Source: Psammoneis japonica
Taxonomy: Eukaryota
Assembly (NCBI GenBank): GCA_008632985.1
Contig: QPGO01000071.1
Span: forward strand, 235,516 to 299,515
DNA length: 64,000 nucleotides
Direction of reading: 5' to 3'
Shown here: in pieces, positions 5,720 to 62,150 of the stretch
Layout: every line of letters starts with the position of its first letter
Position numbering within the stretch: the first letter of the stretch is position 1
Translations under genes and position numbers: made by a program
Notes under the pieces: generated by a model
Database searches by the model: none
The model's input: only the letters and a program-made list of their open reading frames with translations
What the model was told of the DNA's origin: nothing

Positions 5720-6089
5720 GGGATTAAGCTGGTTAGATGTGTGCACAATCGCCTTTGCCTTTTAAGGTAGTCAATAGACCTTTCTTCATTTCAAGATTTT
5801 TGCCTGGGTACGGACAGACTGTACGTCAAGCGGAAATTGTATTGGGCAGAAAAGGGGCAATCGTCCAGCTACGTAGGTAGCTCTTTATAAACTGTGTAGG
5901 AAATGTACCAGGGTTTGTGTAGAATTTGATAACGACACAATTCCATTTTGATAGCGACAAGTAGAAATTTACATAATTTTTCAGTACAAATTTGACAGCG
6001 ACGTCAAAGACGGAATCCATCCATCAACATGCCAATTACTGCATGAATGAGCATTCGTCTCCGTAACACAGTAACACACAGTGTCGACA

Positions 6090-9000
6090 ATGGCAACGTC
6101 AAAATCAACTGATTCCTCGGTGCCACATCCACCTACACAGGAACATGTGTCAAATGACGAGATGCCACCGTCATCTCAATTAAACCAAGTGCAGCAGCAA
6201 GGAATCCGAGTGGAGGACGAGTCGTTGGAGCCAGCAAACTCGCGTCTCCTGACACACGCCGTGCCAAATCCATGCGCTGTACCAAATCCATATGCGAGAA
6301 GACCTGAGGCAGAACAACAGAAGAAAAAAGGGCGTGGACAAGCCAAAGGAAGCACGTGCAAGCGAAGGACCAATGCACAGATTGAAAGAGACAAACGAAA
6401 AGAGGAAAAGGAGCAGAAGGAGCGGGAACGGAGAGAAGCCCGAGAGCGCGATCGGATGGGGCAGCAAGAGGCAGATCAAGCCAAGGCCAGGGCCCCACAA
6501 AATTTCTTTTTACCACAAGTGGCTCATTCACGTGCAACAGCAGATGAGATTGATGCAAGCGCCGTTTTGGCAGCAGCTCAGCCTGGTGCAGACGGCCCCG
6601 ACTCTGTGGCAGGTCATGCTCCAGTCGCAGATGATGGAGTCGCCACTGCTCCAGTCGAAGAAAACAATTTCAATCAAGAAGATGCTGTCCCTCTGGCAGA
6701 GCTGGCACAACCACAGCCACCATCAACTGCAAAAGAGCCAACTGATGCAGACCCGCTGCCTGGCATCAATCTGGAGCAGATTCCCCCCATGTTCAGGAGA
6801 ATTGCAGGCAGCACAATGCATCAGCTCTGCGCTGATGTGAAAAGGAAAACGAAACAGTCGAACCAACATGTTCGGCATTCAACTGGGGCCAAGGATTTTC
6901 CATGGAAGTCAGAAGAATGTGAATGGGTGAGGCCTTTTGAGCTTCAGAGACCGGCAACTTTGGCGGACATGCTGGTTGAGCACTTCTGTCGCATCATGTT
7001 CTTTTCTCCAGACAGAACCGCTCCACACCTGCTGCCCACAGGTCAAATGCCATGTAAATGGCATGGCTTTGGATGTGATCCGGAGACCAAGCAGCCTTGC
7101 ACATGCCGAGATCTATTTTTCAATGACTTTGTTCGTTCATTTGTTGATGAAGACGGGTCAGTTGGCAGCACATTTTCCGGGCAATGCTGCTGCAGCATTC
7201 GGGCGCCAAGGGACGTCAAAGATGCAGCCCATGACAAATTCCGTGTCACTGGCAATGATTGTGGGGACGATGTCAACAACCATTCTTGTTGTTTCGCAGG
7301 CCACTGTGATGAGGTGCTTGCTCATCTCACAGCGGATGTACGAGGAATTCTGAGTGTGGTCATGACAAAACGTCGTGCGGTGACGGTCCAGTTGTCCAAC
7401 CACATTTTCAAAGCAGTGTCTTTGAAGAGGAGCTTAAATGCGATTCACAATGAGCTTGTTGCAAAGCAAAAGAACAAGTTTTACGAAATGAAGGAGCAGT
7501 TCCAAGCTGTGCATTTCAACCCAAAATTGCGAGGCACTGTGCAGAGTGTGCAGAAGCTGTTGTTTGAAGCGGCTGTGACGACAAAGTTTGAAGCAGCCAT
7601 CAAACATGATCCTCCATCCAGGCAGCATCTCCAAAGTGTCTTCATGAACCGTGTGCTTTCAAAGTTGCCACATTTCGAGAGATGCCTTGAAATGGTGTCG
7701 GGGAAGGTTCTTTGTGTGGCGACAAATCACACAAGGTCGTAAAGTTTGCATTCGTTGCTGCCACTTCCGCTGGGAGCGTGAGAGCATGTGATTCAGTCTA
7801 CATGGTTGTGAATGAATGCAACCAGGTGGCAGACATTCGCTTCGTTCGCAGCGGGGACCATGATGAGGTTGAAAATGTCTTGAAGGCGATCCAGCATCGA
7901 CACAAGGCACATGCCTGCGATGAAGTAGAGTCATTCTACACAGACAACTGCTGCCATGAGTGCCCCATGATCATCAGGGCGATTCCATCCTTGGGAAAGT
8001 CTGACAGAAGCAATGCAATGGAAGCTGTCATTCCTCCATTGGCTGCCTTGCCCGACGGCAGCACTCCAGCAGTGACAGAGACCTGCGAACAACTGAAGGA
8101 CTTTTGTCTCCCGATCTTGACGGCTGTTGACACAGTTGCTGAAGAGAAAGTGTGCATCGGTTTCGATGTGGAGTGGGACAGCTTGACTGATGAAGAATTG
8201 CGCAACCAAGTGCCAGTTGTCATGCAGATTGCCACTGACAACCCTTGTCCTCAATCCATTGGCGTTGTCAAATTGTGGAGCATCTTTCCCAACATGACCC
8301 GAGACAGCAACGGTCAGTGTGGCATCTTGGACGTCAGCAACTGGTGCGCAACAAACAGTGCATTGCGTCAATTGCTGGCACATGCAAAGGTGCACTTGGT
8401 GGGCGTTGATGTCAAAGGTGACATGACGAGACTCCGGAACCATTGTCCAGAACAGCTGTTTGGTGTCGACTCCATCAAAACCCTGGACTGCCGGGAGCTG
8501 GCTGACAGACATGGATTGTTCCAGTGAGGCGAACAGAGGAAAATGGAAACAATGGTCAAAAAGCTCTTGGGCAAATGTGTTGACAAAAGCCTTGCTAGAT
8601 CCAAATGGAGTGCCCGTCAATTGTGCCCGGAGCTGGCAGTTTGCGCTGCACTTGATGCGTGGCTCTCGCTCCTCCTTTGGAACGAGCTACAGAGACTGGC
8701 TGCAATGCACCGAAAGCCGAACAGAGATGAATTGATGCCTGGGCTTCCTGTTCATCTCTTCTCTCTAACATCAAACACAGTTGTTGCGCATGGGAAGATG
8801 CATGATGTCAATTTGAAAGTGGAGGAGGCAGTTGACGGAAAGCCAAGAACGTTCGAGGACATTAAGGTCACAGCAGCCGCGGTGGCAAATCTGAGTGCAA
8901 AAGTTCCCCATCTTGTGTTCAACAGAGCCGACGATGCACTCCATGCACTCAGAGACTCCATGGCCGGGGACAATTGCATTGCACAGTGGAAGAGATCCCG

Positions 9001-11267
9001 AATGGTTGTGTCGACCGAGAGGCTGATGTGTCAAGCACTGCAGGTCGACACAAATTTTCAGACGACATGCAAAGCAACAATGAGGTCGAGGGTTCCAGTG
9101 AAGCTGGAGGCAGCCTGGATGAAATGGCCCCAATTGATCACCAAGATGACAGCAACGGAAGCAATCATGCCACTGGCGCCGGCAGCAGCAATCACAACAG
9201 TGTCAGTGTAACCGAGGAAGATGCAATCGACCAGGATGTCAGCGGCGCCGTGAACACCACAAGCAATCATGCTGGCAACGGATCATTCGAAGACGAAAGC
9301 ACAACCTGCAGTCATGCTGCTGGTTCCAGCTCACCAAGTGGAGACCTCAGCCAACAAAGAAGAAATGAGGCACCTGCCAGAAGGAAGCAGCCTGAGTGAG
9401 TTCCCAGACTCACATGGCTCTCGGCTCTCGAAACGAACACGATGATGATGAGCTCCAGCATGATCATGAGGACGGCGACATTGAGTCACTTGCTGGGGAT
9501 GAAGCAGCTGCCGAGGTGTTTGCACGAAACTGTGTGAAAGGGGATTGCTTCCATTTTCTCAAGGACATCAAAAGCACTTGGAAAAAGAAGCATGGTTTTT
9601 ATGAAGAAGTGTCGGGACTGCTTCGCGACTCCATGCTGCTGATCAATCAGGAGCGGCTAGACCTTGAAGTCAAGAAGCTGGTGGCAAAGCTCACAAACCA
9701 TGTGCAGGGCAGGTGGTGCAACAATCACAAGGAAGCAAAGAAGGAGGCGCAAAGGAGGATGAATCGGCCGTCGTCCAAGACCTTGGCGGACACAGAGAGA
9801 ACAACACCCCAACCCAGCGATCTTTTGGTGCGAATCAAGAGAACGGTTTGATTCATCGCCAATGTCAAGTGCGCCAAGTCCGGGGAACCACTCTTTTCAA
9901 AGGAAACCTGGAAAGTTCATTTCAACTTTGTCAAACATGTCCAAAAAGGATGTGTGAGCAACAGACCAGGCTTTGACTGCTGCTGCATCCGAGCCGATCC
10001 GTCGAGTGGGAAAACAACCATGCATTGCATTTGTGGCACTTCGCAGCTCGAAGGCTTTCACAAGCACCCAAAAGAAGCTCTAGTGGCACATCATTCATCC
10101 CCCTTGCTAGCGGTTTGTCTTTTGGCCACATTTGCACACCGATGGAACCATGATCGCGCAGCAGAAAGGGGACTTGCACCTTCCGAGTGCTCGCAATTCT
10201 ACAATCACAAAACAGTCCACAACATGCAAACCACAAACTATGAGCACGGAGTGCATCAGTGCCAAGGTGACCTTGTAAACCCCAATGACTTTGGACATGC
10301 CGGAGGAGGTGCACACATGCCGATTGAGGACCGGTGCATGGCAACAATCAATGCAGAGGATTCCAAGTCACCTGCAGCAACAGTGGAAAACGCCATGTCC
10401 GAAGCTTTGGAATTCCTGGCCGAACGAGATGGAAGGGATGGTGTTCCAGTTGCTCAGGTCACCGGCCATGAAGCTGAATTGTTTCAGGAAGCACTCCCAA
10501 GATTCGCGAAAGCAGCACGAAACAACCAAAACCAGCGCAGTTTGCATGACTTTGCACGCATGAATGCGTGCTGGGATGATCTGGTAGATGCTGAATGGCA
10601 AAAACCGCTTGGCGAGCATCGTCAGACATTCCGGAAGACAGCACCTGTTCTCTCGGCACATTGTAAAAAGGTCGAGAGACAGAAACTCAAAGCTCGCACC
10701 ATGCGGCAAACTGCAACCACTTGTGACAGCACTGGTGTAGAGAGAACAGTCATTGTGAGTGGGGAGACAGACAGAATCCGAGCAGACATTCAAGAAACAG
10801 CTCGTGTGCAAACCTTTTGTGCTCCTCTTCCAAACCCACCAGAAAGGTCTGAGCCATTTGGGGTTGCAGGAGAGTGCCAGCCGTGAATTTGCCGCCAGTG
10901 AACACAAGCAGATCGGCTTGAAATGCAGCTGTGTTGGAATCGGCAGCTAACAGGTGACACATCCGAATGCCTGATCCTCCACCACATCAAGAAAACAGGA
11001 AAAGAAAAGCTTCCACTTGCAGTGCAGCGCTGCTTCCGTTGTGGCTTGACCCGAAATGGTCCACGTCACAACCGCAGGGCAAAGCCCAACAGCACTGAAT
11101 GCTGCGCCGTGCCGGCTGAGGACAGGGTGCCACACTGGGAAGTGCCAGATGGCTGCAATGCTGGAGATGATCTCAGAGCAGTAGACTCAAACATTGCAAA
11201 GCGAAAATGGAAGAAGATCCGATTGGACAACAACATTGGTGTCGACCCTGAGTTTCCAAATTGGTGA
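6090..11267 (+). pseudogene. Large DDE transposase of the C/DxxH group (Mutator-like) with an embedded WRN-type DEDDy 3'-5' exonuclease; disrupted
   Basis: Putative D1 CGDKSHK (7721), D2 FYTDNCC (7943), DxxH KGDCFH (9543), E GTSQLEGFH (10050); exonuclease motifs IGFDVEW, LVGVDVKGD and CAALDA; frameshift near 7713 and TGA stops at 8525 and 9849. Confidence 0.7.
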
Positions 11268-11900
11268 CGATGGATGAGAACTCGGCAATGACAAAATAAA
11301 TGCACAACCCAGTGATCAACACTTGCAGCTTCATTGTTGTCATTCAACACAGTTGAAGAAGACGGCATTCATCACTGCTGACACCACCTGCGCCACTCCA
11401 ACACTGCGTGCAATTGCCGTGCCACAAAGTGTGTCACGCATCTGGGCGTCGTGCGTGATCATTGAACATAGAGCCCTCTCTCTCGCCTCCTCCTTTTCCT
11501 CCTCAAGTGAGACCAAAAAAATCAAAGACTGACATCATGACGTTTTCTTGCCAAACAGCTCGAAATCTACTCAATCTACTTCTGCTTGCCTGAAAACCAC
11601 TCATTTGTCAGAAAACGAGCTCCTGGTCACAAGAAAATCCAGGTGGTCATGCGCGCTTTCACGCGAACAAGACCCCATGCAGAACAGGTTGTGTGTGCTT
11701 TTCATCATTCTTCGGAGTGACATGCAGACTGTGCTGAGATTTCCTGTAGAAAGCCAGCAGAAACAAGTAAAAAATCTGCTTCATTTTTCTCGTAAAATGG
11801 CCAAAATCTGCTTTACCCACCCGACATGATGTCAGTTTTTGAGTTTTTCGGTGGCACTTGTCCTCCTCTTTTTTTCATAAAATCGGAGCTACCTGCTGTG

Positions 11901-13889
11901 CACGTGACCGGACACATGCCGAATTTTTTGTTGGAACTCTCCCTGTGCCTGCCATCAAATTGCGTGACACTCTGGCAATGGACATCAACAACACATCTAT
12001 CTCGAAGACCAATCACCGCCTTGCCACAGAACACATTGCACACAACAACACGTCTTTGTGTGTTGCAAATGAGCGTTGTCAACTTCAGCTCCGTTGGGTC
12101 TCATGCAGAGCTGGCAAAAGCTCTTGGTGTGCCTGAAGGTGCACTGGACTTGGTGTCATTCAGCGAGTCCCCTTGCAAGGGCACGAGAGGCAACAGCAAT
12201 TGCATTCACCCGGCGGTCTGTCAAAATCAGGGACACTGTGTTGTTCATGGCCATTCTTGGCATCCTCGTTTGACCGACAGGAAAGGAAAGCCGAAAGAAG
12301 GGGCAATGCGGCCATCCACTTCTTGGGCCCGAGTTCCTGCCATGACACAACGGCCAATCCGCACCCGCCGCTTGCTGCTGTGAGAACCCAATCTGTGAGG
12401 GCATTGGGTGCTCTCATTTTGGTGTGTTTGTCTTCCTGCCGGCCTTGCAGACAAAAAGCTGTTCTTGCAAAAGATGGGAGTTTTAAACAAAACCATCAAA
12501 AAGTTGCTGGAGAATGGAGAATGCAGATGCGTTGCAACATGCCCCTTGGCACCTGCACCACCACAACCGGCATCGTGGAGAAGATGGGAGATGGAAGATT
12601 CAGGACCGTAAAGAATGTTGAGATGGAGACAAATTTGTGCATCTGCTCCCGCCTCCAATTTGTGATCTGCAAGAATGCATCAACAAAGTGAGGAACCCAT
12701 CACTCGGTCATGGAAGGAGCTGCGCTGCCACAGGCAATGCATTGCCGGGTCGGGCATCCAAGATGGCAGCCACACAAGCAGGAAATGGGCAGCCACTCCG
12801 TGCAATTAATGATGCCAAAAGTCAGGATGCAAAATGAACTCTGACAACCGGCAATGACAACCAACGGCACAAACGTCAGGTGGTTGACCCAGAAGAGCAT
12901 GAGCGCATCAAGGAGGAACTCCGGCTTGTAAAGGCAAAGCTTGAAAGTGCATTGACAAGGAACAAGGAGGCAGAAGCTGTGATGGAGATCAAGTGTGGTG
13001 AACTCCGAATTGCACTTGAACATCAGATGGGGAGAAAGAGAACTGTGAGAAGCAAGCCATCGAGAACATGGAGAATCTCATGGCGACAAAAGCAATTCTC
13101 TCTTGTGATGATCTAAAGCCTGGAGGCTCATTGGGGGGGTTTGTTGGGGACTGTGCCTGCTTTCCCACATTTAAATGCAACGAAGCCTTCCTGGAGTTTC
13201 TCAATTGTGGCGAAGCATGCAATCCTGGCGACGGCTTGTGTGAGAATGTCAGACGGTGCTCCAGGGTCGGCTGGGAAGAAAGGAGCGCAAATCGTGAGAG
13301 AGATGGAGCAGTGCGGGAGAGTGGCAATGAGTCAGATTTCTGTGTGCCGCTGGACGATTCAATGGGCAATGGTGAAAATTTTGAGAACTCAACCAGAAAG
13401 ATTTAAAATTATGACACAATCAACAGCTGGAACATCATCTGTGGAACGAGAGCTTTCTGATGATGTTGCTTTTATTTCCATGCCCCTGACAGATCCAAAT
13501 TCTCGTCCACATGTCCTGCCGACCCCGCACTTGCGCGCCACAAAATCCCAGTGCGTTTTGCTTGAGCAGGCGTTGCTTCAGCAAAAACTGGAATTACAGC
13601 ACAATCAATGGCAACAACATCATCTGCAGAACGAGAGCTTTCCAATGATGTCATTTTTATTTCCACACCCCTGACAGATCCGAATTCTCGTCCACACATC
13701 CTGCCGACCCCGCACTTGCTCACCACAAAATCCCAGTGCGCAATCGCACTTTTTTAGCATTCAATCGAAGCTCGACATTTCTGCATGGATGATTCAGTGT
13801 AAAACTTGCATGTGATCACATGTGCTCCACAAAACATTAAAAACACAGAAGAAACCAAAACTGATCGGTGTTCGGAGTGTCGGCACATG
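11901..13889 (+). mobile_element. Internally deleted DNA transposon with fragments resembling a transposase N-terminus
   Basis: Imperfect inverted ends cacgtgaccggacac..ccga (11901) and tcggagtgtcggcacatg (13872-13889); broken ORFs 12070-13400 (coiled coil, FPTFKCNEAFLEFLN..GDGLCEN); subterminal repeats. Confidence 0.45.
13416..13740 (+). repeat. Direct repeat of about 140 bp, period 185 (13416-13555 and 13601-13740)
   Basis: Shared aacatcatctg..gaacgagagctttc..ctgacagatc..aattctcgtccaca..ctgccgaccccgcacttgc..ccacaaaatcccagtgcg. Confidence 0.9.
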
Positions 13890-14474
13890 TTGTTTGTTGT
13901 TCTGCAGCGAGAGACAGACCCTGTGTGTCTGAGACAGTTGTCATTTTCATTGCATGAGGGGTGAACCTCGGTGGAGACGACACCGGAACGAAGCTGCGGG
14001 AAAGTCAGGTTATGAGCCAAAACCAGTGCTCTGATGCTGTCGTGAAACAAGACTGTGTCGTGCGCCCACGACCCCATGTTGGCGGAAACAGTCTGCATGC
14101 GGTTCACGTGAAAGACGGCAAGACCGTCGATTTTTTCAAGAGAACAAGACGATTTTGGCCCTCTAGTTCAAGTTTAAGCCTGGGACCAGATTTGATTCTT
14201 GGTGGGGCACTGCCACCACAATTGAGAGCCATTGAGCAGCCAGTTTGCATGATGGCAGTGACACAGAAATCTGATGGAAAGAAAACGCAAAAATGAGTGC
14301 GGCACGGTGCTGCATTTTTGTCCGCGTTTGGAATCCCTGTCGCAGGCTCCAGCAGCTTGCAACAGATGTGTCATGCTGCAGCATCTAAATGCATGTCATG
14401 ACTGATGAAAAGAAACAGTTTGCCATCCATTGCAAATGGAGCTGGTGCAGATTGCAGCAGTGTGCTGTTGCGAT

Positions 14475-15543
14475 TCAATCCCTGCGAAATTGCAACCCTG
14501 ACTGAACCTTGTCCGGCTTTGGCAATGGAACGTCTTTCGGACTCGGCTTCAGATTTCCATGCAAATCTTCTGTGCTAAAAAGACCTTCACCACACTCAAA
14601 TGACAATTGTGTCACAACAGTGCAGGCACGGAAACATTGGCTGTGCAGGTGGATGTCGTGACGAAAGCGTTGCGAAAGACACCCAAACAGCTTGAGACGA
14701 TCATTTGCCATCTCTTGTTTGTTGCGCACAGCCCCTCTCACCTTGGCGACAACTTTTGGCTCCACACAGTGAATCCCACTCGTGCTCTTTACATGCTCTG
14801 GGTCCTCCGCTCCGTAGCCATCATCGGCTTCGACCCTCTTGTTCTCTCCCAAATGGTGCTTGACAGAGTGACGGAAGATTTTGAGATCGGGCCAATCTCC
14901 ACAAGGAAACGGCCCATTGATCCACACAATGTCACCGGTCAAAATGCACACACAAACTTCACACCAGAGGCCAGCCTTTTTGAACTTGAAAGAATAAAAT
15001 GCCTTTGGGTTTTTCCCTTGGCTGGTCGTTTGACAATCGGCACAATCGACTGTCACCAAGCAGTCGAGGCCCTTGTCTCCAATGAGACGATTCGACCACA
15101 CAATCTGTGAAACCCGCAGAGGAAAAGGTTAGACTGAGCATCATTCACGTGACACAATCAGGCTGAAAACTCACCACTTCGAACTCCAAACACGAAACTC
15201 GGTCAATGAAGAACCAACTCCACTTGCGAAACATCTGTTCGTCAACTCCGCCACATTTGCAAGCAAGGTCTTCTTCGGTTTTGCATGTTTTCACCAAAAG
15301 CAACGCCCAGAGTAGATGAACTGGCTTTGCACATTTCTCATCTTTATCTGGCTCTGATTCTGGGTCGGGAACGCCAATCCTCAGCCCAATCCAGATGTCG
15401 ACACAGACAGCGGGCTCAACAGCAAAGTGAGACATCCACCGTCGGTTGAACACCACTTCGCTCCCAGTCCACGGGCAGTGGTTCATGATTTCACTGCCAA
15501 GTTCAATGAATGTGTCGTGGTTGGGACCCGGCATCTTCTTCAT
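14475..15543 (-). CDS. PIF/Harbinger-like DDE_Tnp_4-type transposase, 2 exons (intron 15174-15105); frame open but heavily substituted
   Basis: GTGAGT donor, CTAAC branch point, CAG acceptor; motifs VTVDCADC, IVWINGPFPCG.WPD, EADDGY and KQEMANDRLKLF. Confidence 0.8.
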
Positions 15544-15911
15544 GGGGGGTCCTGCCGCGGCATCGCCCTGTGGGCGTCATCGAGTCAACGACATCGTGGG
15601 GTGTCGTTTTCTCCGCAAAACTGGGCACGCCAAGATGGATGCAACATCAATGATTCTCACACAGTCTCAAATGTGTGTTTTTTGACGAGCCGTTAAAAGT
15701 CATGCGTTGATGCAGTGCGGTTGTACGACAACACAGGCAAACACTTTCGAACTGCTTCGCACAGCACCGTGATGTACGACGCCAAACAGCTGTGATTTGA
15801 GTTGGAGTTCTCAATCCATTGAGGTCACATGATAAAATGCAATGTTGCAGCTTGTGTGTGTGTGTGAAGTGTAATTTTTGCATCTGCAGATGTGTGATTT
15901 TTCAGAATCTG

Positions 15912-16016
15912 GAATTTTGACCGGACTTTTCGATTTTGACCGAAAAAAGAAAGTCCGGTCAAAATTCAAATTTTCGGTCAAAATGAGCCGAAAAAAAGAG
16001 GCGCATTTTCGGCTCA
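15912..16016. repeat. Cluster of three perfect inverted repeats (18, 14 and 11 bp)
   Basis: 15912-15929/15950-15967; 15933-15946/15971-15984; 15984-15994/16006-16016. Confidence 0.9.
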
Positions 16017-16468
16017 CTTCACACAACTCTTTGACAGTGTGTCATTGTGTTGTCCAACGGCCTTTCGCTTGAAGACAGGACAGATTGAAGTGACCGGAAA
16101 ATGAAAAAGACCCATTTGAAATTTCGGGCCGAATTCGATTTTTCCGGTCGGATTAATCGGATGTCCGTTGCTTGGCCAGAATTCTCTCAACAGACCGGAA
16201 ACTGGTCGTTGATGTCCAATGATCATGTTCAGTTTTAAAGCTGTCATTGTCAATGTTGCTGTCAAAGCTTGAATGTGATTTAATCATGTGTCTCTGCGTC
16301 ACCTGCACAACGAAAACGTGGCATGGTGCGCGCAGGCAGCCCAAACGAAGGCTCTCGATGGCTTTCGAAGAACAAAGCCGAGGCTCCATGCTCGCTCAGA
16401 AGCCAAGACGCAGACGCATCCACTCGCACTTCTGAGCTCTGATCATCGTTGTTTGCTTTCTCCTGTCA

Positions 16469-17736
16469 ATGGGACCGCGTTGGGGAACAAAGCAATGTCA
16501 CGAGTGCACGAAGCACTTTAACTTGTTCCATGCCAGCAAAGGCAAAGAGGGCTGGGACCCCAACAACACCGAGGAGGCACATGTCAAGTCCAAGACCGCG
16601 ATGTTGGATGTCATCCGTCCTTTTCTGCATCGCAACCTTGGTGGTCACAAAGATCACAAATTGTCTGACAAGGCTCTTGGTGGCTGCAAAAGAGCCTCCA
16701 GTGAGCATTTCGTTGAGTTGGCCATTGACGGAACCCGTCGAAGTGTGTGAATTGTCGCTTCACCCTGTTGGTTGTTGTTCATGCTCACATTTGCCACGAC
16801 TCACGATGATCTTTTTTTTCCTTGACAGAAGCACACCTGGCAGATGAGGAGAAAACAGGCGCACGGGCAACTCAAGCAACAGCAGGACAAGGGGTCACAC
16901 GGCTGCCGCAAGGAGGAGACGACGACGACAACTGCGACAGTGCCAACGACAGCAACTGTGAGTTTGAGGAGCAAGAAGACAAATCTGAGGAGGAGGCAGA
17001 TGATGAAGGCAACAGCGACGAGCAACAAGAACCCAGGAGCACTGGCAGTGTGAAGACCCCCAGTGCTGCACCAAGCAAGAAGTCCAAGACGAAGAGGACT
17101 CCCAAGAGCTCCTCAAAAAAGAAGTCGGGCGCAGAAGACTCTCGTCTCACAAGAGACATGCAGGAGAAGCTGAACATCTCCGGCTGCGCGCGCCATGTCC
17201 GAGACGATATTTTGCCATGCTCCCTTTGTGTCTGGACGGAGCCGGACTCGGGGATCAACCACGTCACGATCGAAATCGAGCTCCTTGGCACGATGGTGGC
17301 GCAGGACTGCAAGCCGAGCATCGCGCGCGATGGTGCAGAGGCAACTGTGGAGTGCAAGTTCCCAAATGGCGGGGACCTGATGGACCCAGCACACCTTTTG
17401 TTGACTCACAAGGATCACATTGATTTTTCAGACCAGCATCCGAAGCATTCAGCTGAGCAGAAAGCAATGAGGGCCTTGAAAGAGTTGAGTTTTGACAAAG
17501 AAGAAGACAGGAAGCTCCATGTTGAGCTTCCTTTCCCTTGCAATTTGAGTGGATTCTATGATCCACTCAAGGATGAGGATAACCAGCATCCAGCGGTCAA
17601 CCTGTGTCCGATTCATCCACGGGAGAGTGTCCCTGAAGGTGCGCCGAAAGCATCCATGAAGAAACTCGAGCTGACCCTGGAGAGCTTGGAAAAACCCAGG
17701 TGCACGCAAGAGGTTGTGTTGGCTAGTTTCTTCTAG
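16469..17736 (+). pseudogene. Transposon-associated second ORF, divergent from the transposase; probably 2 exons; acidic and Lys/Ser-rich tracts
   Basis: ORFs 16469-16750 and 16822-17736 lie inside the TpA-poor island and are almost Tyr-free; a two-ORF layout is typical of Harbinger elements, but no Myb motif was recognised. Confidence 0.45.
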
Positions 17737-23650: not shown

Positions 23651-24447
23651 TTATATTGCGTCCTCGTCGGACTTTGTCGTCCGTTCAATGTTATCATTTT
23701 TAGATACTTCCCCGGATATGATGCCTCGTTGAAGTGCAGTTGAAAAGGCTCGCTTCACATAATCACGTTTTACTGCCTCGTTCAAATTTACAGATTCGAC
23801 ATTCGCTGCAATAGAGTTCCATTTTTGACTAAAAGATGATAAGGAGCCGATCTTTAAAGTGCGCCCTGGCTCCTTCAAAGAAGGTAGGGGAAAGGACCGT
23901 GGGCCGGAGCAAGACCTTGATCGTAACACCCTCTCTTTCGGACGTAGTCGTTGTTCAGAGCGGTGTGTGCTTTTACGTTTCTTGAGTGGGCCAGATTGAT
24001 CTTGACATCTAGTAGAGCTTGAACGTTTCCTTTCATGTCTCTCATAAGCAATGAACCAAGCGGTTGTTCCGCAGCACTCAAATGCCTTTGTCCAGCCAAT
24101 GGCATGGTAGCAATTGTGGATGGAAGAATCCTAGCATTGTGAAGATATTGCATTCTCAAACAGTCTTCCATGGCCAGGCGCTGTTGAAATATAGAGGGCT
24201 GATAGGTGTTATGCAATGTCGGAAGGAATGGGTTTGTCGCTAGAGGTAACGCAAGCTGATTAAGTTGGAGGAGAGCCCTTTCATTTTGATTGGCTTGCTG
24301 CATCATTCTTGCTGCGCGAAGGAGTGAATCTGACCTGCTAATTCGAGACGATTCTTGTTGATCATTCTGTGCGGTAAGTAGCCTTTGGTGCTCCCCATCT
24401 TTCTTCGAATCCATGGCCATAAAACGATCACCTTTGCATCGTTGCAT
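23651..24447 (-). CDS. Low-complexity hypothetical protein split over two frames (frameshift or unrecognised intron near 23900)
   Basis: Overlapping ORFs 23875-24465 and 23651-23929; Gln/Leu-rich, with an FPLPSL..LSSFSQKW tail. Confidence 0.4.
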
Positions 24448-44330: not shown

Positions 44331-44481
44331 GGTGACTCACTCCTATCCTCCTCCGAAATGTGGGATCGAGCTATTCATATGGTGTCCGGATTGGTGTTCC
44401 AAGCTGATTGTGTAAACTTCCCGACAAAGTGTGAAGAGCACTCCACAGGTGCGTATGAACAGCCATGCTAGGTTTTCGACC

Positions 44482-48391: not shown

Positions 48392-50158
48392 TTACCGGTA
48401 TTCCTCCCCCTCCTCTTCGCTACTAGCGTCCTCGTTTTCTTCGTCCTCGTAGCTTGCAGTTGGCGCCGGAGTGTCGCCTGGTCGGGGATCCACATATTCG
48501 AACGTTACTCGATCATAGTCGACTCCCATCTTGTTCCTTCTCAAATGCTCCTTGAACATGGGCGTCATTTCATCCTCCACAAAGTCACAGAGATGACGCT
48601 CCACCGTTTGGTTCTTGGTGTGAATGCCAAACGTTCTAAAGAATTTTCCGCAGTTCGAATGTGACCCAATCCATAAACCTTTTCCTCCTTGCTGTAGTAG
48701 CTGTCTTTATCCTCGGGTCGTCCCATTCCGATAATTCCATTGAGCCGTTTCATGGATGTCGCTCCGGCTCCTAAAAAGTCTGCATCATGTTCCCAAAACT
48801 TTGGAGGCTTCACTTTGGGTTCGTACATGTGAAAGCACACGGACCGTTCGGGCGCGTAAAAGTCGTATCCATAGGTGAAAAGGCGCAAGCCCATGGATAT
48901 TTCCTCTCCTTGAAACACAAGTGGCAGGTACTGATCATAGGGGACTTGCACAACACAGTGGCCTCGTGCAAACGAAAAGCCAGCAGCCCAGAACGGGTGA
49001 AACTGGGGTTCTCCATGAATCGACGGAGGACCCTCGGGTTCTTGTCCGTGTCTCAAGTGCCGATGGACGCCTTCGCCCTCAAAGTCAGAGTCACACATGA
49101 GCGGCCGGCCTTCACGAATTGCCATGTGTGTCTCGGGATCAATGCTGGTATCAGTTTCCCAGAGCGATCGTCAGAAGCGCACAACAATAGTTAGAACGTT
49201 TCTGAACCACGAAAAACAAAGCCTTCTGTCCAACTTTATACGTACCTGTGTTTTAACTCTGACAAGTACACAGTCAATACACCGTATTCATTGTTTGCGG
49301 ATTCCCATTGCCCAATGAGATCTTCGTCCCAATCTTGTACAAAGCGCACGTGCGAATCGATTTGCATGGCAAAGTATTCTCCTCGATACATGCGATCACC
49401 CAAATGACGAGCAAAGACGGGCCCGACGGCAAATTTGGCGTCCATTTCATAAAACTCCATCAAGTAACGATACCGACAAAAGGCTTGTTGCGGATCTTCG
49501 TTGCAGGATTTCGGTGGATTGGAACACAAGCTATCCGACTCTGCAAACTTTTGATCAATAATGCCCACACGAATTCGTTCCGGGTATTTGCTCGAGCATA
49601 AATGGATTCCAACGTGGGAGCACACTGTGGATCACAATATGCCGCAATGGAAATAAAAATAGTGGGCATCTCCTTGCCATTGATGGTTGCATAGCTCCCC
49701 ACACTTTTTGCCTGCTTCATGGTCATGAGCCGCCTTCCATAATTTCCGAGATAGGCACGAATCCCCTTGTGCCCATACTCGGTGGGTGCCCAAAACTTTG
49801 GAACCGTCAAATTCAAGTGCATACCATACTTTTTTCGAGCAACTTTGGAAAATTCAATTCCCGGATGAGCAATCTCCTCCAGGTCCGTACCCACGTGTAG
49901 AGGAAAGGAATTGTGTTGAAGATTGTATATCTTCCCACCCCGAGTCTTGCCGTCCATGACTCGCATCATGACTCCGTCTTCTCCCACCATGACGTCGTTG
50001 GGCAGTTCTGGAAAGTTCCATACGGCAACAATTGTGACGACTGCAAACAAAACGGAAAAGACAATCAAGGCAAGAACTACTTGTCGATCGGTGGTGGAGA
50101 GCTTATAGGCAAAGGCTTGATTTTTTCGTCTACGTCGTTTTGTATTTACAGCAACCAT
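48392..50158 (-). CDS. GT60-family (Gnt1/OGNT-like) GlcNAc transferase, type II membrane; intron 49245-49145; two apparent 1-nt frameshifts
   Basis: IFISIAAYCDPQC, GPVFARH, MQIDSHVRF, FWAAGFSF and FQGEEISM. Confidence 0.85.
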
Positions 50159-51741: not shown

Positions 51742-53496
51742 ATGTCTAACGAATTATTAACCAATGGCCATGCCAAAAGAGAGCGAAAACGTAGCAGCAG
51801 AAAAAGAAGAAAAAGAATAAGCGAACGTAAAGTCATGTCGGCTGAGGATCGGCAACTCTTGAATGGCTTGGTTGTACTGGTTGCACTCTATGGCCTAATT
51901 ACAGTTGCTACCTACAAGTTTTTACCCTCTACATCAAACGACACTACAATAACGAGCAGCAGTGGTATTCGGGGTGTATCAGAAGAGCAGTCATTCGGTA
52001 TCAGCAACGATGCGATTGCAAAGTTGCGAGAAACATTTCCTGTCCACGTTGGTTCGGAACTGGAAGAAATTCCTCATCCCGGAATTGCCTTTTCGAAAAA
52101 GGCCCAATCCGTCTTTGGAGCTACCACAACTTTGAAGGTTCCCAAATTTTGGGCTCCGACCGAATACGGCCCCGACGGGATTCGTGCGTATTTGGGAAAT
52201 TACGGAAGTGTTCGCATGACCATGGAGCAAGCCAAGAGTGTGGGGAGTTTTGTCACTACCAAACAAGGCGAACGGTTGCCTACGATTTATGCGTCCATTG
52301 CCAATTATCGGGATTACGAGTGCGTCCCGACGGTCGAGTCGATTTATGCACGAGCCGAACATCCCGAACGGATTCGTGTCGCTGTGATTGATCAAGTGCG
52401 AGACGGAGATTCACTCTGTTCGACTCCAGCAGAACCCTGTGAACAAAGTCCAACACAAGCATTGTGCCAATACCGTCACTTGATGGATTTTTACAAAATG
52501 GATGCCCGATATGCGGTTGGTCCCGTCTTTGCGCGACATTTGGGGAACCGCATGTATCGAGGCGAGTACTTTGCCATGCAAGTCGATTCGCATGTTCGAT
52601 TTACAGAGCACTGGGACAGTGATATCATTGGACAATGGGAGTCGGCGAAAAATGAATACGGCGTCTTGTCCGTGTACTTATCGGATATTATTGGAAGGTG
52701 TGACGATTTGAATCAATGTTTCTGTTGTTTGTATTTGCTGTTAGCTTTGTTCTGATCCACCCTCGCTTCTACTCTCTTTGCGCACGCCATGTAGCATTGA
52801 TCCCGCAACCAACAAGAATATCCGTGGCATGAGACCCATCATGTGCGAAACCGATTATGAAGGTGTTGGCGTGAACAAGCACTTGCGTCATGGCCAACAA
52901 CCCGAGGGCAAACCCTACATTCACGGCGAACCCACGCTCCATCCCTTTTGGGCTGCCGGTTTTTCCTTTGCGCGGGGTCACTTTGTCGTGCAGGTCCCAT
53001 ACGATCAATGGTTGCCACTGGTGTTTCAGGGAGAGGAGATATCACTAGGACTACGCGGATTCTCATACGGATATGACTACTACACACCGGAACGTGCCGT
53101 TTGCTTTCACATGTACGCCAACAAGGAAAACAAGGAGGTACGAAAAAAGGTTCCACTCTTTTGGGAAAACACTCCCAACTATGCCAATGCCGGTGCGGAA
53201 GCCATGAAGCGATTGAATGGAATCATCAAAATGAGCAAGGACCCGTATTTTAACAAAGACGAAAACTGTATGGGTTGGGTCAAGTTCGATCGACGGAAAA
53301 GTTTTTTAGAACCTTTGGCATTCATACGGATACGCAAACAGTCGAACATCACCTGTGCCGATTTGTTGGACAACCCATGATGAAAAAGTTCAAACCGCAT
53401 TTAAGAAAGGATGGGTTGGGCATCAATTACGATGAGATTGACTTTGAATGGAAGGATCCAATTCCCGACAAGAAAAAGAGGAAAATTAATCGGTAA
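51742..53496 (+). CDS. GT60-family GlcNAc transferase paralog; intron 52698-52794; apparent 1-nt frameshift near 53265
   Basis: IYASIANYRDYEC, MQVDSHVRF, FWAAGFSF and FQGEEISL; same intron position and phase as 48392-50158. Confidence 0.85.
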
Positions 53497-53960
53497 TCTC
53501 TCTAGCTAGAAAGAGCTACGACAGTAAATACAGACTCCTGTATATGCTTGCATGTCCACGAACACACCTCAAATAAATAGCTTTCTAGCCATTGTTTGGC
53601 CACCGTCAAGCGATGACGTGGTACAGTCTCAGATGCGGCTCGACATGTTTTGATACAAACTTGACAGTACCTACTAGTACTGTACTTACTCCTCACCACA
53701 CCTAATGAGCAGGGGGTTGTCAAAAGCGTTTAAGAAAGGATGGGTTGGGTATCATTTACGATGAGATTGACTTTGAATGAAAGGATCCAAATCCCGAAAA
53801 GAAGAAAAGGCGGAAAAATCTCTCTAGCTAGAGAGAAAGTTACGACAGTACAGACTTTTGTATGCTTGTCCACGGACACACCTCAAAATAGCTTTCCAGC
53901 CATTGTTTGGCTACCGTCAAGCGGTGATGTGGGAGTCTCAAATGCGGTTCCACATGTTTG
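53400..53960 (+). repeat. Tandem duplication of about 240 bp covering the 3' ends of two convergent genes
   Basis: 53400-53650 vs 53729-53960, both starting ttaagaaaggatgggttggg. Confidence 0.9.
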
Positions 53961-59379: not shown

Positions 59380-60199
59380 GAGAGTTACAACAACAGTCTC
59401 GATCGTCTTGTGTGCCAAGGACTATCGTTGACGCAGCCTTTCCCATTCACAAACAAGAATGAGGCCGATGTTTTCTTCTTTGCGGGTCCACACTTTGCTG
59501 TGTGTGTCTTTGTGAGTTTTGTGTGTGACGACACTCCGAGGCGTCGCACAGTTCAACTCAAAATCTAACCACGTAGAACGCAGGTACAAAGCTACGGGTT
59601 AAATTTTCGCGGGAAAATTGGTTGCTGGGTCCGCCCTCGCAACAGAAGTATCTATTATTCATGTGTCATTATTTACAAAAGCCGAAAATGTTTAGACGAA
59701 ACCAAGACCGTTGACAAAAATATATGGTATTTAATATATTAATAGGCTTTCAAATAGTTCAACGGAGAAAATAAGACAGAAATCGCAGATTCTTAATTGC
59801 CCTCACACATGTATTTCGGCATTTCCAAGGAGTAACGGTGGTATGAATATCAGAACTCATGAGTAGTGTATTACCATAATAAACGACTCAACGTCCTTTA
59901 CTCAGTAATATACTATTAATGAATTAATATGTGATGTGAATCTCTGTCATAGGCGATGGAGGACGGACGGACGGTTCGGATTTCTGTTCGCGCTCGCTCG
60001 TCGCGCGCCTCGATCGGTGCGATCGAAGGAAGATTTTATGAGAACTCGTCTGCCCGCCGCCTGGTGCGAATCGTCATCACTAATCTCTCTATCACACCGA
60101 TGGCACTCTTAATTAAGAGAGTAGCTACCAGCTGCTACTGCTAGTAGCTAGAGCTAGTAGTAGCTGCTATAAGAGTGGCTAGCTGCTTCCTCCGGCAAG

Positions 60200-62150
60200 C
60201 GACAATTGTCCACAACGAAATGCCGTGTTGTTTTTTTGGGCCGCACATCGTGGTGCTGCTTCTGCACATTTTTTTTGTTCATGCGCCATTTCGCGCCACC
60301 ACTAAAACCTTCTAGATGGAGCTATTGAATCACATCTTTTGGCCCGACTGTGGCGTGAAATGCCAATTTGATGCAATGGTGGGAAAACGCAGAAATGCTC
60401 CAGCACCGATTCTAAGTGCATGCTGTCAATTGTCCAGAGATGGCACCTTCCAAAACAGCACTGCTCCATGTGTGCCTTGGCATCGAATGGCTCCTGACTC
60501 CATTCAAGCTCTGCTGTGAGACACACTTCAGCATCCTCACATGAGCAGTCCATGTCACTCACCAACATTGAGAAAGCTCGTTGTCACTCAGAAAATCTGG
60601 GCATTGTGCCCTTCCCCAATGACATCCGGCGTCAGAGGCACCGCACATTCTGTTCCACTGGATCAAGGTGCTCAATCTTCTCCACTCAGCTGGGATTCTG
60701 CATCTCTTCTGAGTTGCAAACACACTGAAAAAAATTCCGAATTCCACAGTGAAGCAATCATGAATCCTTTGCGAAATCATCCCTCCCATCACACTGAAAA
60801 ATGGCGTTCACCACTTGACTGTGGTGCACAAACGATGACCGGGCGATTGTTCCATCGGTTGCCCACAGTTGCTCTCCCTGCAAACATTGACCACCATTTT
60901 CAAGCCCTTGGTCTTCAGCGACCCTCTTGGCCATTGCTGGAAAGAAGTGTGCATCCTCAATGTTGGTGAGTGGGGAGTTTGGTGGTTGCGGTGCAAGCTC
61001 CCAACCGCACTGAGCAAATTCACAATCAACAAACAATGGCCAACAGAACCGAATCAATGTGTGGTGTTGCATTGTCCCGCTGGAGCCGAAGACATGCACT
61101 CATTTCCCCATGTCATTTTCCACCCTCTGAGCAACTGCTTCCATCTTCGCCATCAGAATGTTGCGGAAGTGATCCAACAGTGCAAATTTCGGATTTCGTT
61201 CTGTCCCAAATTCGATCCAGTGACCTCCCAATTCTGAAAGTGCTCCTTGCCTTTACAACACAACAAGTTCTCTGCAACCTTGGGACAATGGAATGTTCCA
61301 TCAGCTCTGTGCACACGGTGACGCGAATCCTTCTTCGCCTTCACCTTTCCACCGGCACGAGCACAATTGACCTTGTGTGGCCACCTCTCTGAAAATCATT
61401 GTTCTGTCATCAACATCAATGGCCGTTGAGTTTCATTTGGTGATCGCTGACAGGCACTTGCAACCAATGATGCAGGAGAGAGTCACCTCATGACAACATC
61501 AAAACTGAGTCTGTTGTTGACTGTGTGCCGCACATTCGCTCGCACATTGGCACCCCGTGGAAACCCATGACAAAGCCAACTCCACCTTCACTGTCGGGTC
61601 ATCCTGTGCAGTGTTCCGGTGCCACCTGCACCAGTGCACCAATTGAGTGGACACTTGGTGTGGGTGCATTGTTGCACGAAGTTGCAGTTGATGGCATGAG
61701 CAACATGTCTCATCGTCACTGTGGTGGCAGCGGTTCCGTGTGTTTTGATGATGTCGTGTCGTGGATGAACTCCCTCCGAGCCAATTTGCGCAGAAGCAGC
61801 ACCACGATGTGTGGCCCAAAAAAATGACATGGTGTTTCCTCGTGGACAGTTGTTGCTTGCCGGAGGAAGTGCTGGCTGGCAGCCACTGCTGATGGCTCAG
61901 CTGGAGAGCAGAGAGTGCTGCAGACTCCACTCTCCAGAGCTGGAGCCCTGCAACATCTGCCAGAGCAGAGAGTAAAATGCAGGCCCCACTCCAGAGCTGG
62001 CAGTGGCCCTCTGCCACTGCGGCAGAGCTGCTAGAGCAGAGAGCCAACTGATGACTTCCCTGTAAAAGCCAGACAGATGACATGCTCAAGTGCCGCATTT
62101 CCCGTGCAGGCACTTGCACCCACTGCATGTTCAACATGGCGTGCAGCTGT
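60200..62150 (-). mobile_element. TpA-depleted island with a Tc1/mariner (IS630-like) transposase remnant
   Basis: WELAPQPPNSPLTNIEDAHFFPAM (about 60910-61005) matches the QPPNSPDxN motif; frames are broken. Confidence 0.75.

Follow-up and report, generated by a model that had tools for sequence, protein, structure and literature searches.

About two-fifths of the analyzed stretch of Psammoneis japonica DNA (64,000 nt, hereafter the window) consists of dead DNA of mobile type, in sharply bounded blocks where TG or CA has replaced nearly every TA dinucleotide. The changes have a defined polarity and dinucleotide specificity, affected both strands, arose in place, are restricted to discrete domains, and are co-located with CpG decay. 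The host genes of the window place the DNA in diatoms. We consider it highly probable that silenced mobile-type or foreign DNA in the diatom nuclear genome was hit by a domain-targeted hypermutation, acting at the level of DNA, that turned TpA into TpG or CpA.

Extent, composition, and borders of the islands

A two-state HMM was run on the TA positions of the window and returned six island segments (1–1447, 6292–17723, 25001–33571, 35044–37806, 42698–44321, and 60324–61972) that sum to 27,486 nt and make up 42.9% of the window. An earlier sequence-only reading had placed six islands within 6080–62150; six exist, but only five lie inside that span, the sixth being the one at 1–1447. Composition was counted with hand-set island borders (27,141 nt inside and 36,859 nt outside). 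The near absence of TpA from discrete islands described in that reading was borne out, with 107 TA inside (observed/expected ratio 0.06; 3.9 per kb) versus 1,489 outside (0.58; 40 per kb), and its estimate of about 15 TA in 25001–33330 compares well with the 16 counted in 25001–33375. The reported enrichment in TG and CA was likewise found (observed/expected 1.68 and 1.64 in islands versus 1.17 and 1.18 outside), and the ratio for CG was 0.40 in islands versus 0.98 outside. Only TA and CG decreased, and only TG and CA increased, by more than 0.2 in observed/expected ratio between the outside and the islands; the next largest shifts were those of GC (+0.17) and AG (+0.16), and AA (1.23 versus 1.17 outside), TT, and AT were little changed. 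In total, the deficit of TA plus CG (66.8 per kb) is approximately matched by the excess of TG plus CA (62.9 per kb), in agreement with the proposed dinucleotide specificity. The balance holds in total and not by flanking context (r = −0.58), and the assumed ancestral composition is therefore only approximate. CpG is eroded in all six islands to a varying degree (observed/expected 0.13–0.66), a loss alongside that of TpA on which the sequence-only reading had laid little stress. The GC content of the islands is slightly raised.

The island borders are as sharp as had been claimed, being defined within about 10 to 200 nt; TA every 5 to 15 nt gives way within tens of bases to none for more than 1 kb. 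At the outside TA density, the TA-free gaps of 841 to 1463 nt have probabilities of 1e-15 to 1e-26. Non-ORF DNA outside the islands (16,375 nt) contains 47.9 TA per kb, with observed/expected ratios of 0.66 for TA and 1.0 for CG. Because the non-coding DNA adjoining the islands is TA-normal, the process is domain-targeted, as the earlier claim of restriction to discrete domains had held. In ORFs of at least 200 aa, Tyr accounts for 0.36% of residues inside the islands versus 2.9% outside.

The sequencing runs found belong to one study only, which may be the assembly's own source. Contigs of run X1 (2.0–13.3 kb, plus three of 0.7–1.3 kb where island 3 is multi-copy) extend for kilobases across borders and through islands at flank depth with 0 to 2 differing letters, which speaks against an assembly quirk, and they cross the left border of island 3 at the same depth as its flank.

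Contents of the individual islands

Island 1 (1–1447; 2 TA), which is cut by the window start, is erased of both TpA and CpG; its part at 202–1447 has no TA and observed/expected ratios of 0.14 for CG, 1.83 for TG, and 1.66 for CA, and the island gave no Pfam match. In island 2, the largest (6292–17723; 75 TA in 11,432 nt), TpA is nearly gone and CpG is only partly eroded (0.106 and 0.66, respectively, in 6292–17556). Both dinucleotides are almost erased from island 3 (25001–33571; TA 0.031 and CG 0.15 in 25001–33375). It includes a multi-copy part (26669–29336) with a summed contig word depth of 758 to 1013, compared with about 60 in the single-copy flanks (at least 90% likeness), and a putative LTR-like direct repeat (plus strand) whose left copy (25511–26204) lies about 5.2 kb from the right copy (30736–31667); self-BLAST aligned the left copy to 30736–31349 with 79% identity. 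Island 4 (35044–37806; 10 TA) is erased of TpA and CpG (0.05 and 0.13); its contig depth of 66 to 89 is that of single-copy DNA, and one 4,385-nt X1 contig covers 33096–37478. Island 5 (42698–44321; 1 TA in 1,624 nt) is erased of TpA and partly eroded in CpG (0.39), and the homologue search found no homologue of its ORF at 43525–44370 (minus strand). By contig depth, islands 4 and 5 look single-copy. Island 6 extends by eye over 60181–62156 around its HMM core at 60324–61972 (8 TA; TA 0.068 and CG 0.51) and carries an 83-nt inverted repeat (60186–60268 and 61787–61869) with arms that are 87% complementary and that differ, as judged by eye, partly by TG/CA and CG/CA. The dense TA run stops at 60180, 6 nt ahead of the first arm.

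The islands had been labeled Harbinger-like, Mutator-like, copia, and Tc1/mariner, and these labels were not supported by Pfam: no transposase, integrase, or reverse-transcriptase domain was detected in 150 island stop-to-stop ORFs of at least 90 aa (E ≤ 0.01), in 18 further proteins (E ≤ 1), or in the six whole frames of 26000–31100 with X at stops (E ≤ 0.1). The description of the process as transposon-restricted, with named superfamilies, is not supported: the searches detected no transposase, and at 90% likeness some stretches of the islands occur in a single copy. The sole domain match in the islands is a 3′-5′ exonuclease at 7691–9208. No nucleotide or protein similarity was found between different islands, yet the signature is common to all of them, and no relatives of island sequences were found in the viral contigs searched. 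Most islands are candidate mobile elements.

Polarity and in-place origin of the changes

The exonuclease match belongs to a dead gene (6075–11264, plus strand) whose large, Cys-rich product has a WRN-like 3′-5′ exonuclease domain; the gene is present as ORF fragments at 6075–7739, 7691–8524, 8528–9208, 9396–9848, 9852–10883, and 10902–11264. The gene is collinear with three ORFs of a TA-normal metagenome locus (L001) and also with loci L003 and L008, and the Pfam family DNA_pol_A_exo1 was matched weakly in the window gene and more clearly in L001 and L008; WRN exonuclease was matched by sequence. At the 33 positions occupied by Tyr in L001, the window gene has Cys (11), His (10), Tyr (4), Phe (4), or another residue (4). 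Cys or His was found at 21 of 33 Tyr positions in the island gene versus 1 of 39 controls among TA-normal homologues (Fisher p = 8e-9). Five of the eight metagenome loci of this family are TA- and Tyr-normal, so the objection that homologues elsewhere might be equally TpA- and Tyr-poor, which the sequence-only reading had raised against itself, does not refute it; records L002, L005, and L006 bear the TA-erased signature and the other five are without it. A second hypermutated ORF (16810–17733, plus strand), of an unrelated family with no function assigned, has 37 relatives, all of which are Tyr-normal (0.9–4.3%), versus 1 Tyr in 308 residues of the window copy. Among 14 aligned relatives, five columns have Tyr in at least half of the sequences; the window copy has His (4) or Phe (1) in these columns. 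These comparisons indicate that conserved Tyr codons were turned into Cys or His codons and thus that the polarity is from TA to TG or CA, the direction proposed earlier.

Duplicated sequences within the islands provided an internal record of the changes. The tandem units at 13407–13740 (plus strand) of island 2, which were used as an internal clock for mutation in place, differ at 22 positions over 149 aligned nt; 16 of the 22 mismatches are at YpR, and seven dinucleotides are CA in one unit and TG in the other. The direct repeats of island 3 have 113 mismatches over 650 aligned nt and 12 such CA/TG exchanges, and a tandem pair outside the islands has none. That duplicates within islands differ in this way, with CA in one copy facing TG in the other, shows that the changes arose in place and at the level of DNA. 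A 140-nt repeat has a TA-normal copy outside the islands (3186–3324, plus strand) and an island copy at 13750–13885 (BLAST identity 74%); by eye, TA in the outside copy corresponds to CA (3) or TG (2) in the island copy of the printed alignment, and CG is opposed to CA or TG four times, the CG-keeping copy having been checked by eye in two of the four. TG and CA are similar in number and randomly interleaved in the islands (runs z −0.94 to +0.88), and Tyr-to-Cys and Tyr-to-His changes on the coding strand of the dead exonuclease gene number 11 and 10, respectively. The similar counts of TG and CA indicate that both strands were hit.

Candidate mechanisms and related systems

In the mechanism that we propose, A:T-to-G:C transitions would strike TpA on either strand until TpA is almost gone, and CpG would disappear from the same blocks at a slower pace, as methylated DNA would lead one to expect. 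The hypermutation acts in place on chromosomal DNA, after the within-block duplications had formed, and halts at block edges. Because changes of TpA to TpG or CpA cannot make in-frame stop codons, genes would be killed by missense (Tyr to Cys or His, and others), together with erasure of TA-containing signals, and long false ORFs would remain after hypermutation. We infer that this may be an enzymatic host defense of the type seen in Bigelowiella natans, perhaps with silent chromatin as its guide. Adenine-to-inosine deamination in TpA by a TadA/ADAT2-type deaminase is our preferred, if tentative, chemistry because such enzymes naturally edit A34 following the invariant U33 of tRNA. A tRNA adenosine deaminase fold of the ADAT2/TadA type is able to deaminate A, and also C, in DNA, as described for amphioxus BjADAT2 in excerpts of PMC10354150, and laboratory adenine base editors belong in the same group of ADAT2/TadA enzymes acting on DNA. 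In the same excerpts, the preferred contexts of BjADAT2 in E. coli are GAA when A is deaminated and TCG when C is, rather than TpA; as this is the only ADAT2 shown there to edit DNA, the specific choice of deaminase is weakened.

The same targeting might operate through other chemistry, which we regard as unlikely: a TET/JBP-type enzyme could convert the T of TpA within silenced DNA to 5-hydroxymethyl- or 5-formyl-uracil, and the modified T would mispair with G to give T-to-C changes, seen as A to G on the opposite strand. Because TpA is palindromic, and TG and CA are similar in number, sequence alone cannot separate the two directions. Dinoflagellate 5hmU prefers TpA, and oxidized thymines mispair. 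In excerpts of PMC11572971, a dinoflagellate TET/JBP homologue makes 5hmU that is repeat-enriched and helps transposon silencing, but repeats with a high 5hmU density are mostly less, not more, diverged. Error-prone repair synthesis of the polymerase eta type in methylated chromatin, suggested by the sequence-only reading, would draw on TA being a WA hotspot motif but is very unlikely, as transitions to TG and CA match nearly all of the loss and AA is not depleted. Polymerase eta errors also strike AA, many of them as transversions. It is still more doubtful that an untargeted, genome-wide neutral bias against TpA and CpG became visible only in old dead DNA freed from selection: the islands are dead, and TA is scarcest in those that look older (lowest CpG), but the non-ORF DNA outside retains its TA and CG, and TA density switches within tens of bases at the borders.

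ADAR-like editing of retroelement RNA before reverse transcription and integration could draw on the preference of ADARs for U before the edited A (discussion of preprint 10.64898/2026.01.13.699255); it is extremely improbable given the symmetric TG/CA pattern with no strand bias, the CA/TG differences between chromosomally formed duplicates, and the edited genes, which are not retroelement genes and are accompanied by no detected reverse transcriptase. An artefact of sequencing or base-calling on modified DNA, which the sequence-only reading had itself raised and for which the platforms of the assembly and of X1 are not on record, is to be doubted just as strongly. A base ambiguous on both strands would yield a mixture of TG and CA site by site and interrupt k-mer contigs, but the X1 contigs pass through the islands intact; the same signature occurs in three separate metagenome records; and the mutations of B. 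natans came from Illumina data of propagated lines (bioRxiv 10.64898/2026.01.13.699255). Least probable of all is that the composition is native to an imported TA-avoiding donor or virus, or reflects selection against TA. Tyr needs TA, yet conserved Tyr positions here are Cys or His, and this reading is contradicted also by the TA-normal homologues and by the signature shared among islands without mutual similarity.

Fungal RIP resembles the present case as a dense, sharply bounded, transition-only chromosomal hypermutation of unwanted DNA with a dinucleotide footprint. RIP changes C to T, mainly CpA to TpA, and thereby makes TpA, lowers GC, and creates stops, and it needs duplicated sequence. 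Here, in contrast, TpA is destroyed, GC is slightly up, stop codons cannot be created, and the blocks hit include single-copy ones. The direction of RIP is given also in 10.64898/2026.01.13.699255. Decay driven by 5mC in methylated transposons accounts for the change of CpG to TpG or CpA but cannot remove TpA, and the earlier argument that neither 5mC decay nor RIP can yield TpA loss is upheld; diatom transposons bear DNA methylation and H3K9me2/3, according to excerpts of PMC4504042. The animal enzymes APOBEC3 (on DNA) and ADAR (on double-stranded RNA) share enzymatic deamination against invading nucleic acids, but APOBEC changes C to T and ADAR leaves a strand-biased footprint through RNA, whereas the footprint here shows strand symmetry and was made on chromosomal DNA.

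The closest parallel comes from B. natans, where experiments showed TpA-specific hypermutation of integrated DNA from giant viruses and virophages (Mettrop et al., bioRxiv 10.64898/2026.01.13.699255). In mutation-accumulation lines of that alga, A-to-G or T-to-C changes made up 230 of the 231 new mutations gained in two integrated viral regions; the authors state that these changes are all on TpA. The B. natans genome holds 124 TpA-poor, CpA- and TpG-rich clusters. With the cut-offs of that study, 21 of the 64 1-kb windows here qualify and form three clusters of at least three. Both cases combine A:T-to-G:C change at TpA only, discrete non-host regions, and a long-term TpA-poor, CpA- and TpG-rich footprint. 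B. natans is a chlorarachniophyte in which integrated viral regions are the targets and de novo mutations were seen in lines, whereas the diatom process is known from its footprint in assembled sequence, and its targets have no viral relatives and resemble decayed genes and repeats of mobile type. The erasure of TpA has gone almost to completion here (observed/expected 0.06) versus 0.45 in the B. natans NCLDV region, and it co-occurs with CpG decay, CpG being never mentioned in the preprint. The sequence-only reading knew of no description in diatoms, and none was found in the literature searched; a process of this kind is not new, the TpA-erasing signature having been reported once so far, in 2026, in that unrelated alga. 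The observation is real, and the diatom case adds to a very recently described kind of process.

Extent and composition of the TpA-depleted islands

In sliding-window counts and in a list of TA-free gaps, the window proved to contain discrete stretches with almost no TpA. The two-state HMM that we ran on the TA positions delimited six such islands, located at 1-1447 (island 1), 6292-17723 (island 2), 25001-33571 (island 3), 35044-37806 (island 4), 42698-44321 (island 5), and 60324-61972 (island 6), which together cover 27,486 nt (42.9% of the full stretch). The sequence-only reading had also arrived at six islands, and that number stands, although the span it assigned to them contains five and the sixth lies at the window start; for the interval 25001-33330 it had estimated about 15 TA, in good agreement with our count of 16. 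Composition was calculated using hand-set island borders, which gave 27,141 nt inside and 36,859 nt outside. On this basis, the islands contain 107 TA (observed/expected 0.06) versus 1,489 in the outside DNA (0.58), with corresponding observed/expected values of 1.68 versus 1.17 for TG, 1.64 versus 1.18 for CA, and 0.40 versus 0.98 for CG. The other A/T dinucleotides are spared (AA, 1.23 versus 1.17; TT, 1.22 versus 1.16; AT, 0.82 versus 0.93), the biggest remaining shifts are those of GC (+0.17) and AG (+0.16), and the GC content is 0.50 in the islands versus 0.47 outside. At the outside TA density, the TA-free gaps of 841-1463 nt have probabilities of 1e-15 to 1e-26. The borders are sharp: near island 6, TA are spaced by just a few bases as far as position 60180, after which 1,976 nt contain only eight, and at the start of island 3 TA stands at 24995 and at 25000 but not again before 26431. 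DNA outside the islands that lacks any ORF of at least 200 aa (16,375 nt) has 47.9 TA per kb and a CG observed/expected of 1.0; weakly constrained DNA beside the islands is therefore untouched, and the process is targeted rather than global. We conclude that the TpA depletion of the islands is real and highly significant.

The few TA that survive in the islands depend on their neighbors. When contexts were symmetrized, none survived in ATAC/GTAT (among about 208 expected-scale sites), and survival was 1.3% for ATAT, 4.6% for GTAC, 14% for CTAG, and 36% for TTAA. An additive single-neighbor model, calculated by hand, fits the ten symmetrized classes reasonably, with the order T>C>G>A for the base that follows the A or, indistinguishably, A>G>C>T for the base that precedes the T. 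The loss also has consequences for annotation. We counted 151 stop-to-stop ORFs of at least 90 aa in six frames within ∼29 kb of islands (regions 1-1600, 6000-17800, 24900-33500, 35000-37900, 42500-44400, and 60300-62200); they are so numerous because the stop codons TAA and TAG have vanished and, by the genetic code, a change of TA to TG or CA never makes an in-frame stop. Gene finders will over-call in such DNA, which is full of long false ORFs, and decayed elements escape domain-based transposon annotation, as Pfam sees almost nothing in the islands.

Direction, strand symmetry, and in-place origin of the changes

Tyrosine is encoded by TAY only, so the polarity of the change was examined by scoring conserved Tyr positions for replacement by Cys (TGY) or His (CAY). 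The ORF at 6075-7739 (555 aa), at the start of island 2, has four homologues; in the 11 alignment columns with Tyr in two or more of three normal homologues, the window encodes Cys in six, His in two, and Tyr, Val, and Phe in one each. A larger comparison was provided by L001, a TA-normal metagenome locus of the same gene family, three ORFs of which are collinear with 6285-10875. At its 33 Tyr positions the window has Cys at 11, His at 10, Tyr at 4, Phe at 4, and other residues at 4. Cys or His thus occupies 21 of 33 positions in the window versus 1 of 39 among the TA-normal homologues (1/21 in L008, 0/14 in L003, and 0/4 in L004; Fisher p = 8e-9). In all ORFs of at least 200 aa, Tyr makes up 0.36% of residues inside the islands versus 2.9% outside, and Cys and His are approximately doubled inside. 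The bulk mass balance agrees, with TA and CG together short by 66.8 per kb and TG and CA together in surplus by 62.9 per kb; only this total was used, since the balance per flanking context fits poorly (r = -0.58), from which it follows that the ancestral composition of the islands was only approximately that of the flanks. The changes are almost exclusively A:T->G:C transitions, and both the composition of the islands and the Tyr replacements bear out the direction and dinucleotide specificity (TpA to TG/CA) that had been proposed from the sequence alone.

Repeats within the islands were used to ask where these changes arose. Finding CA in one copy and TG in the other at the same dinucleotide takes two adjacent changes by ordinary mutation; with separate resolution of an ancestral TA (or CG) in the two copies, half of the sites should show it. 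The direct repeats of island 3 have 12 such pairs (650 nt aligned, 113 mismatches), and the tandem units of island 2 have seven (149 nt, 22 mismatches, of which 16 are at YpR steps); differences of the CA/TG type were also seen by eye between the inverted-repeat arms of island 6. As a control, a tandem duplicate outside the islands (53397-53650 and 53726-53959, 81% identity) showed none among 23 mismatches. Because duplicates within islands differ in this manner, the changes must have arisen on chromosomal DNA after duplication. By eye, a 140-nt repeat has TA at 3186-3324, outside the islands, where its island 2 copy (13750-13885) has CA or TG. The islands contain 2,721 TG and 2,911 CA, in random order along the sequence (z of the runs tests, -0.94 to +0.88), and on the coding strand Tyr is replaced by Cys as often as by His. 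Both strands are therefore hit, with no bias from transcription or an RNA intermediate. The process operates at the DNA level, is specific to TpA, acts on both strands, and is restricted to domains.

CpG is eroded alongside TpA, with observed/expected values of 0.14, 0.66, 0.15, 0.13, 0.39, and 0.51 for islands 1 through 6, and differences of CG versus TG or CA were seen between repeat copies. The table of 1-kb windows includes none that combines low CpG with normal TpA. In island 2 the loss of TpA is near complete although CpG is just mildly eroded, which suggests that TpA is lost rapidly or in a burst, on top of a slow decay of methyl-CpG.

Island contents, neighboring DNA, and environmental relatives

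At the start of island 2 lies a dead gene of ∼1,700 codons (6075-11264, + strand), whose encoded protein is Cys-rich and contains a WRN-like 3'-5' exonuclease. The exonuclease gave the sole Pfam match in the islands, a weak one, and a PDB sequence search with this protein family recognized the WRN-like exonuclease and nothing else. Proteins that combine DUF6729 with an exonuclease, scattered in fungi and animals, were language-model look-alikes of the gene and serve as a lead only; the name DUF6729 was not found in the literature searched. Island 2 has a second gene, from an unrelated family (16810-17733); Tyr makes up 0.9-4.3% of residues in its 37 relatives, and the window copy retains one in 308 residues, with His at four of five conserved Tyr columns. 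Neither of these two families has relatives on viral contigs, and no homologues were found for the island 5 ORF at 43525-44370. The ORF at 3344-5719, considered as a member of the island 2 family, proved unrelated, though it adjoins the 140-nt repeat, whose short, unedited TA-normal copy sits just upstream of it.

The islands had earlier been assigned to the Harbinger-like, Mutator-like, copia, and Tc1/mariner superfamilies. Pfam searches of the islands gave no domain in support of these names: no transposase or reverse-transcriptase domain was found in 150 island ORFs, 18 further proteins, or six read-through frames of 26000-31100. A search for terminal inverted repeats returned the pair in island 6 alone, and tRNA and Rfam scans had no matches. 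Part of island 3 (26669-29336) is multi-copy, with a summed contig depth of 758-1013 versus ∼60, and islands 4 and 5 are at single-copy contig depth at a likeness of at least 90%. Since BLASTN and TBLASTN found no similarity between different islands and some islands are at single-copy depth, the footprint is not tied to one family and is apparently independent of repetition as such. Most of the island DNA is putatively mobile or foreign.

The surrounding DNA includes a gene for a DUF4954/hexapeptide-repeat protein (19646-21826) with more than 400 relatives at E ≤ 1e-10; the named ones among the best 120 are all from diatoms, with identities of 45-49% for Cylindrotheca, Nitzschia, Seminavis, Fistulifera, and Mayamaea and 43% for Cyclotella. 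This gene places the window in a diatom or a very close relative rather than in Bigelowiella. An inverted duplication of ∼1.3 kb and 68% identity (48588-49906 and 52036-53357), also outside the islands, is TA-normal, and its right arm overlaps a GlcNAc-transferase-domain gene (51742-52755). A contig from sequencing run X2 omits 93 nt (39077-39169) inside the gene at 39119-40249; the segment ends in GT..AG if the cut is shifted by two bases. The omission probably reflects an intron, and X2 is probably derived from transcripts. No X2 contigs cover island interiors, an absence that counts as no evidence.

A second run, X1, bears on whether the pattern could come from misread bases. A modified base that is read ambiguously on the two strands would leave TG/CA mixtures at every former TA and shattered contigs. 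The k-mer contigs of X1 are instead intact and cross borders and islands at flank depth with zero to two differing letters (spans 24041-26570, 30081-32100, and 33096-37478, and a 13,251-nt contig over 42330-44000); X1 comes from the one study that contains the stretch, possibly the source of the assembly itself. At YpR steps in islands, the run differs from the window at 26431 (TA in the window, CA in the run), 25217 (TG, CG), and 43766 (CG, CA). Such differences may be alleles or strain variants produced by these same processes.

The exonuclease gene family is present as separate copies in eight metagenome loci, L001 to L008. The signature is carried by L002 and L005 (TA observed/expected 0.14, CG 0.24-0.33) and in part by L006 (TA 0.29); the other five, L001, L003, L004, L007, and L008, are TA-normal (0.53-0.62). 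L002, L005, and L006 are mutually 92-95% identical and also differ by TA versus TG or CA; the two comparisons with L002 show four and eight TG/CA pairs and that between L005 and L006 none, and a control pair of TA-normal loci has none among 81 mismatches. The signature in L002, L005, and partly L006 is evidence separate from the X1 contigs. In L008, the exonuclease-family gene (2995-7119, 1,374 aa) has direct repeats of ∼250 nt at 83% identity (838-1086 and 7905-8181) that may be the ends of an intact element.

Known systems, candidate mechanisms, and implications

Searches of the literature on the phenomenon and on diatoms returned no diatom report of TpA hypermutation, and a preprint on the chlorarachniophyte Bigelowiella natans was the only relevant match (Mettrop et al., 10.64898/2026.01.13.699255); a SPLASH preprint that also came up has no bearing on it. 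In mutation-accumulation lines of that alga, 231 of 302 new nuclear point mutations fell in integrated giant-virus and virophage regions, and 230 of the 231 were A->G or T->C, all on TpA according to the authors, at a de novo rate ∼1000-fold over background in the propagated lines. The genome has 124 TpA-poor, CpA+TpG-rich clusters enriched in transposon-type domains, and an ADAT2-type adenine deaminase is proposed as the agent (10.64898/2026.01.13.699255). We applied the same cut-offs (a Rho of at most 0.43 for TpA and of at least 1.52 for CpA+TpG in at least three consecutive 1-kb windows, with Rho computed as the usual observed/expected ratio); 21 of 64 windows pass, forming clusters at 7001-13000, 25001-33000, and 35001-38000. 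Judged at the sequence level, the window displays every feature of the B. natans process, including action on TpA only, TpG and CpA as products, and discrete regions within normal surroundings. It differs in its lineage, in the near-complete erasure, in the apparently non-viral targets, and in the CpG decay that accompanies the TpA loss; CpG goes unmentioned in that paper. The window adds a second lineage, in a more extreme state, to the kind of hypermutation first described in the 2026 preprint.

Several better-known processes fit less well. Fungal RIP converts C to T, raising TpA and lowering the GC content, and can be rejected as the cause on direction, since the islands show the opposite (TpA destroyed, GC 0.50 versus 0.47). 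RIP also acts only on duplicated sequence; at a likeness of at least 90%, the contig depth of islands 4 and 5 is that of single-copy DNA, and the outside copy of the 140-nt repeat is unmutated. Decay of CpG driven by 5mC, with its loss of CpG and gain of TpG/CpA, matches all six islands for the CpG part alone. ADAR-type hyperediting of RNA via retrotransposition, which would leave A->G changes on the sense strand that are older than the integration, is excluded by the strand symmetry and by the in-place, post-duplication origin of the changes. The marks on transposons of the diatom Phaeodactylum, namely H3K9me2/3, H3K27me3, and DNA methylation (PMC4504042), would fit silent chromatin as the common address of the TpA and CpG losses. 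That a single enzyme attacks both of these palindromic pyrimidine-purine steps seems very unlikely, and the flanking preferences of the two losses make no case for it, being weakly correlated (Spearman 0.44, p = 0.2).

As to the chemistry of the TpA change, we infer that adenine deamination by a TadA/ADAT2-type enzyme would be the first choice, with a chance approaching even. In tRNA, the natural target base of TadA and ADAT2 is A34, which follows the invariant U33. The ADAT2 fold can act on DNA, but the DNA-active ADAT2 described prefers GAA, with no match to the TpA seen here (PMC10354150). Oxidation of thymine is a serious rival, if on balance unlikely: TpA is palindromic, and in dinoflagellates 5hmU placed by a TET/JBP enzyme marks repeats and silences them (PMC11572971). 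Tentatively, and with less than even odds, the diatom and chlorarachniophyte footprints could reflect one homologous, ancient SAR-wide defense pathway. In such a pathway a chromatin-guided enzyme would edit either strand of double-stranded chromosomal DNA at TpA, the editing would be coupled to the silent state marked by 5mC and H3K9me, and invaders would be inactivated without the creation of stop codons. If this reading is true, the genetic tractability of diatoms means that the enzyme could be found through comparison of genomes with and without the footprint and through knockouts.

TpA hypermutation of resident foreign DNA has a single earlier report, the 2026 preprint on one rhizarian alga (10.64898/2026.01.13.699255); the footprint in this diatom is much denser, covering 43% of 64 kb. 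Together with the three environmental contigs, it would make TpA hypermutation a widespread algal genome defense rather than an oddity. As diatoms dominate ecologically and are open to genetic work, a direct search can be made for the enzyme behind it, which might be a natural editor of adenine in DNA or an enzyme that modifies thymine, and transgenes or episomes integrated into island-type domains might themselves be edited.
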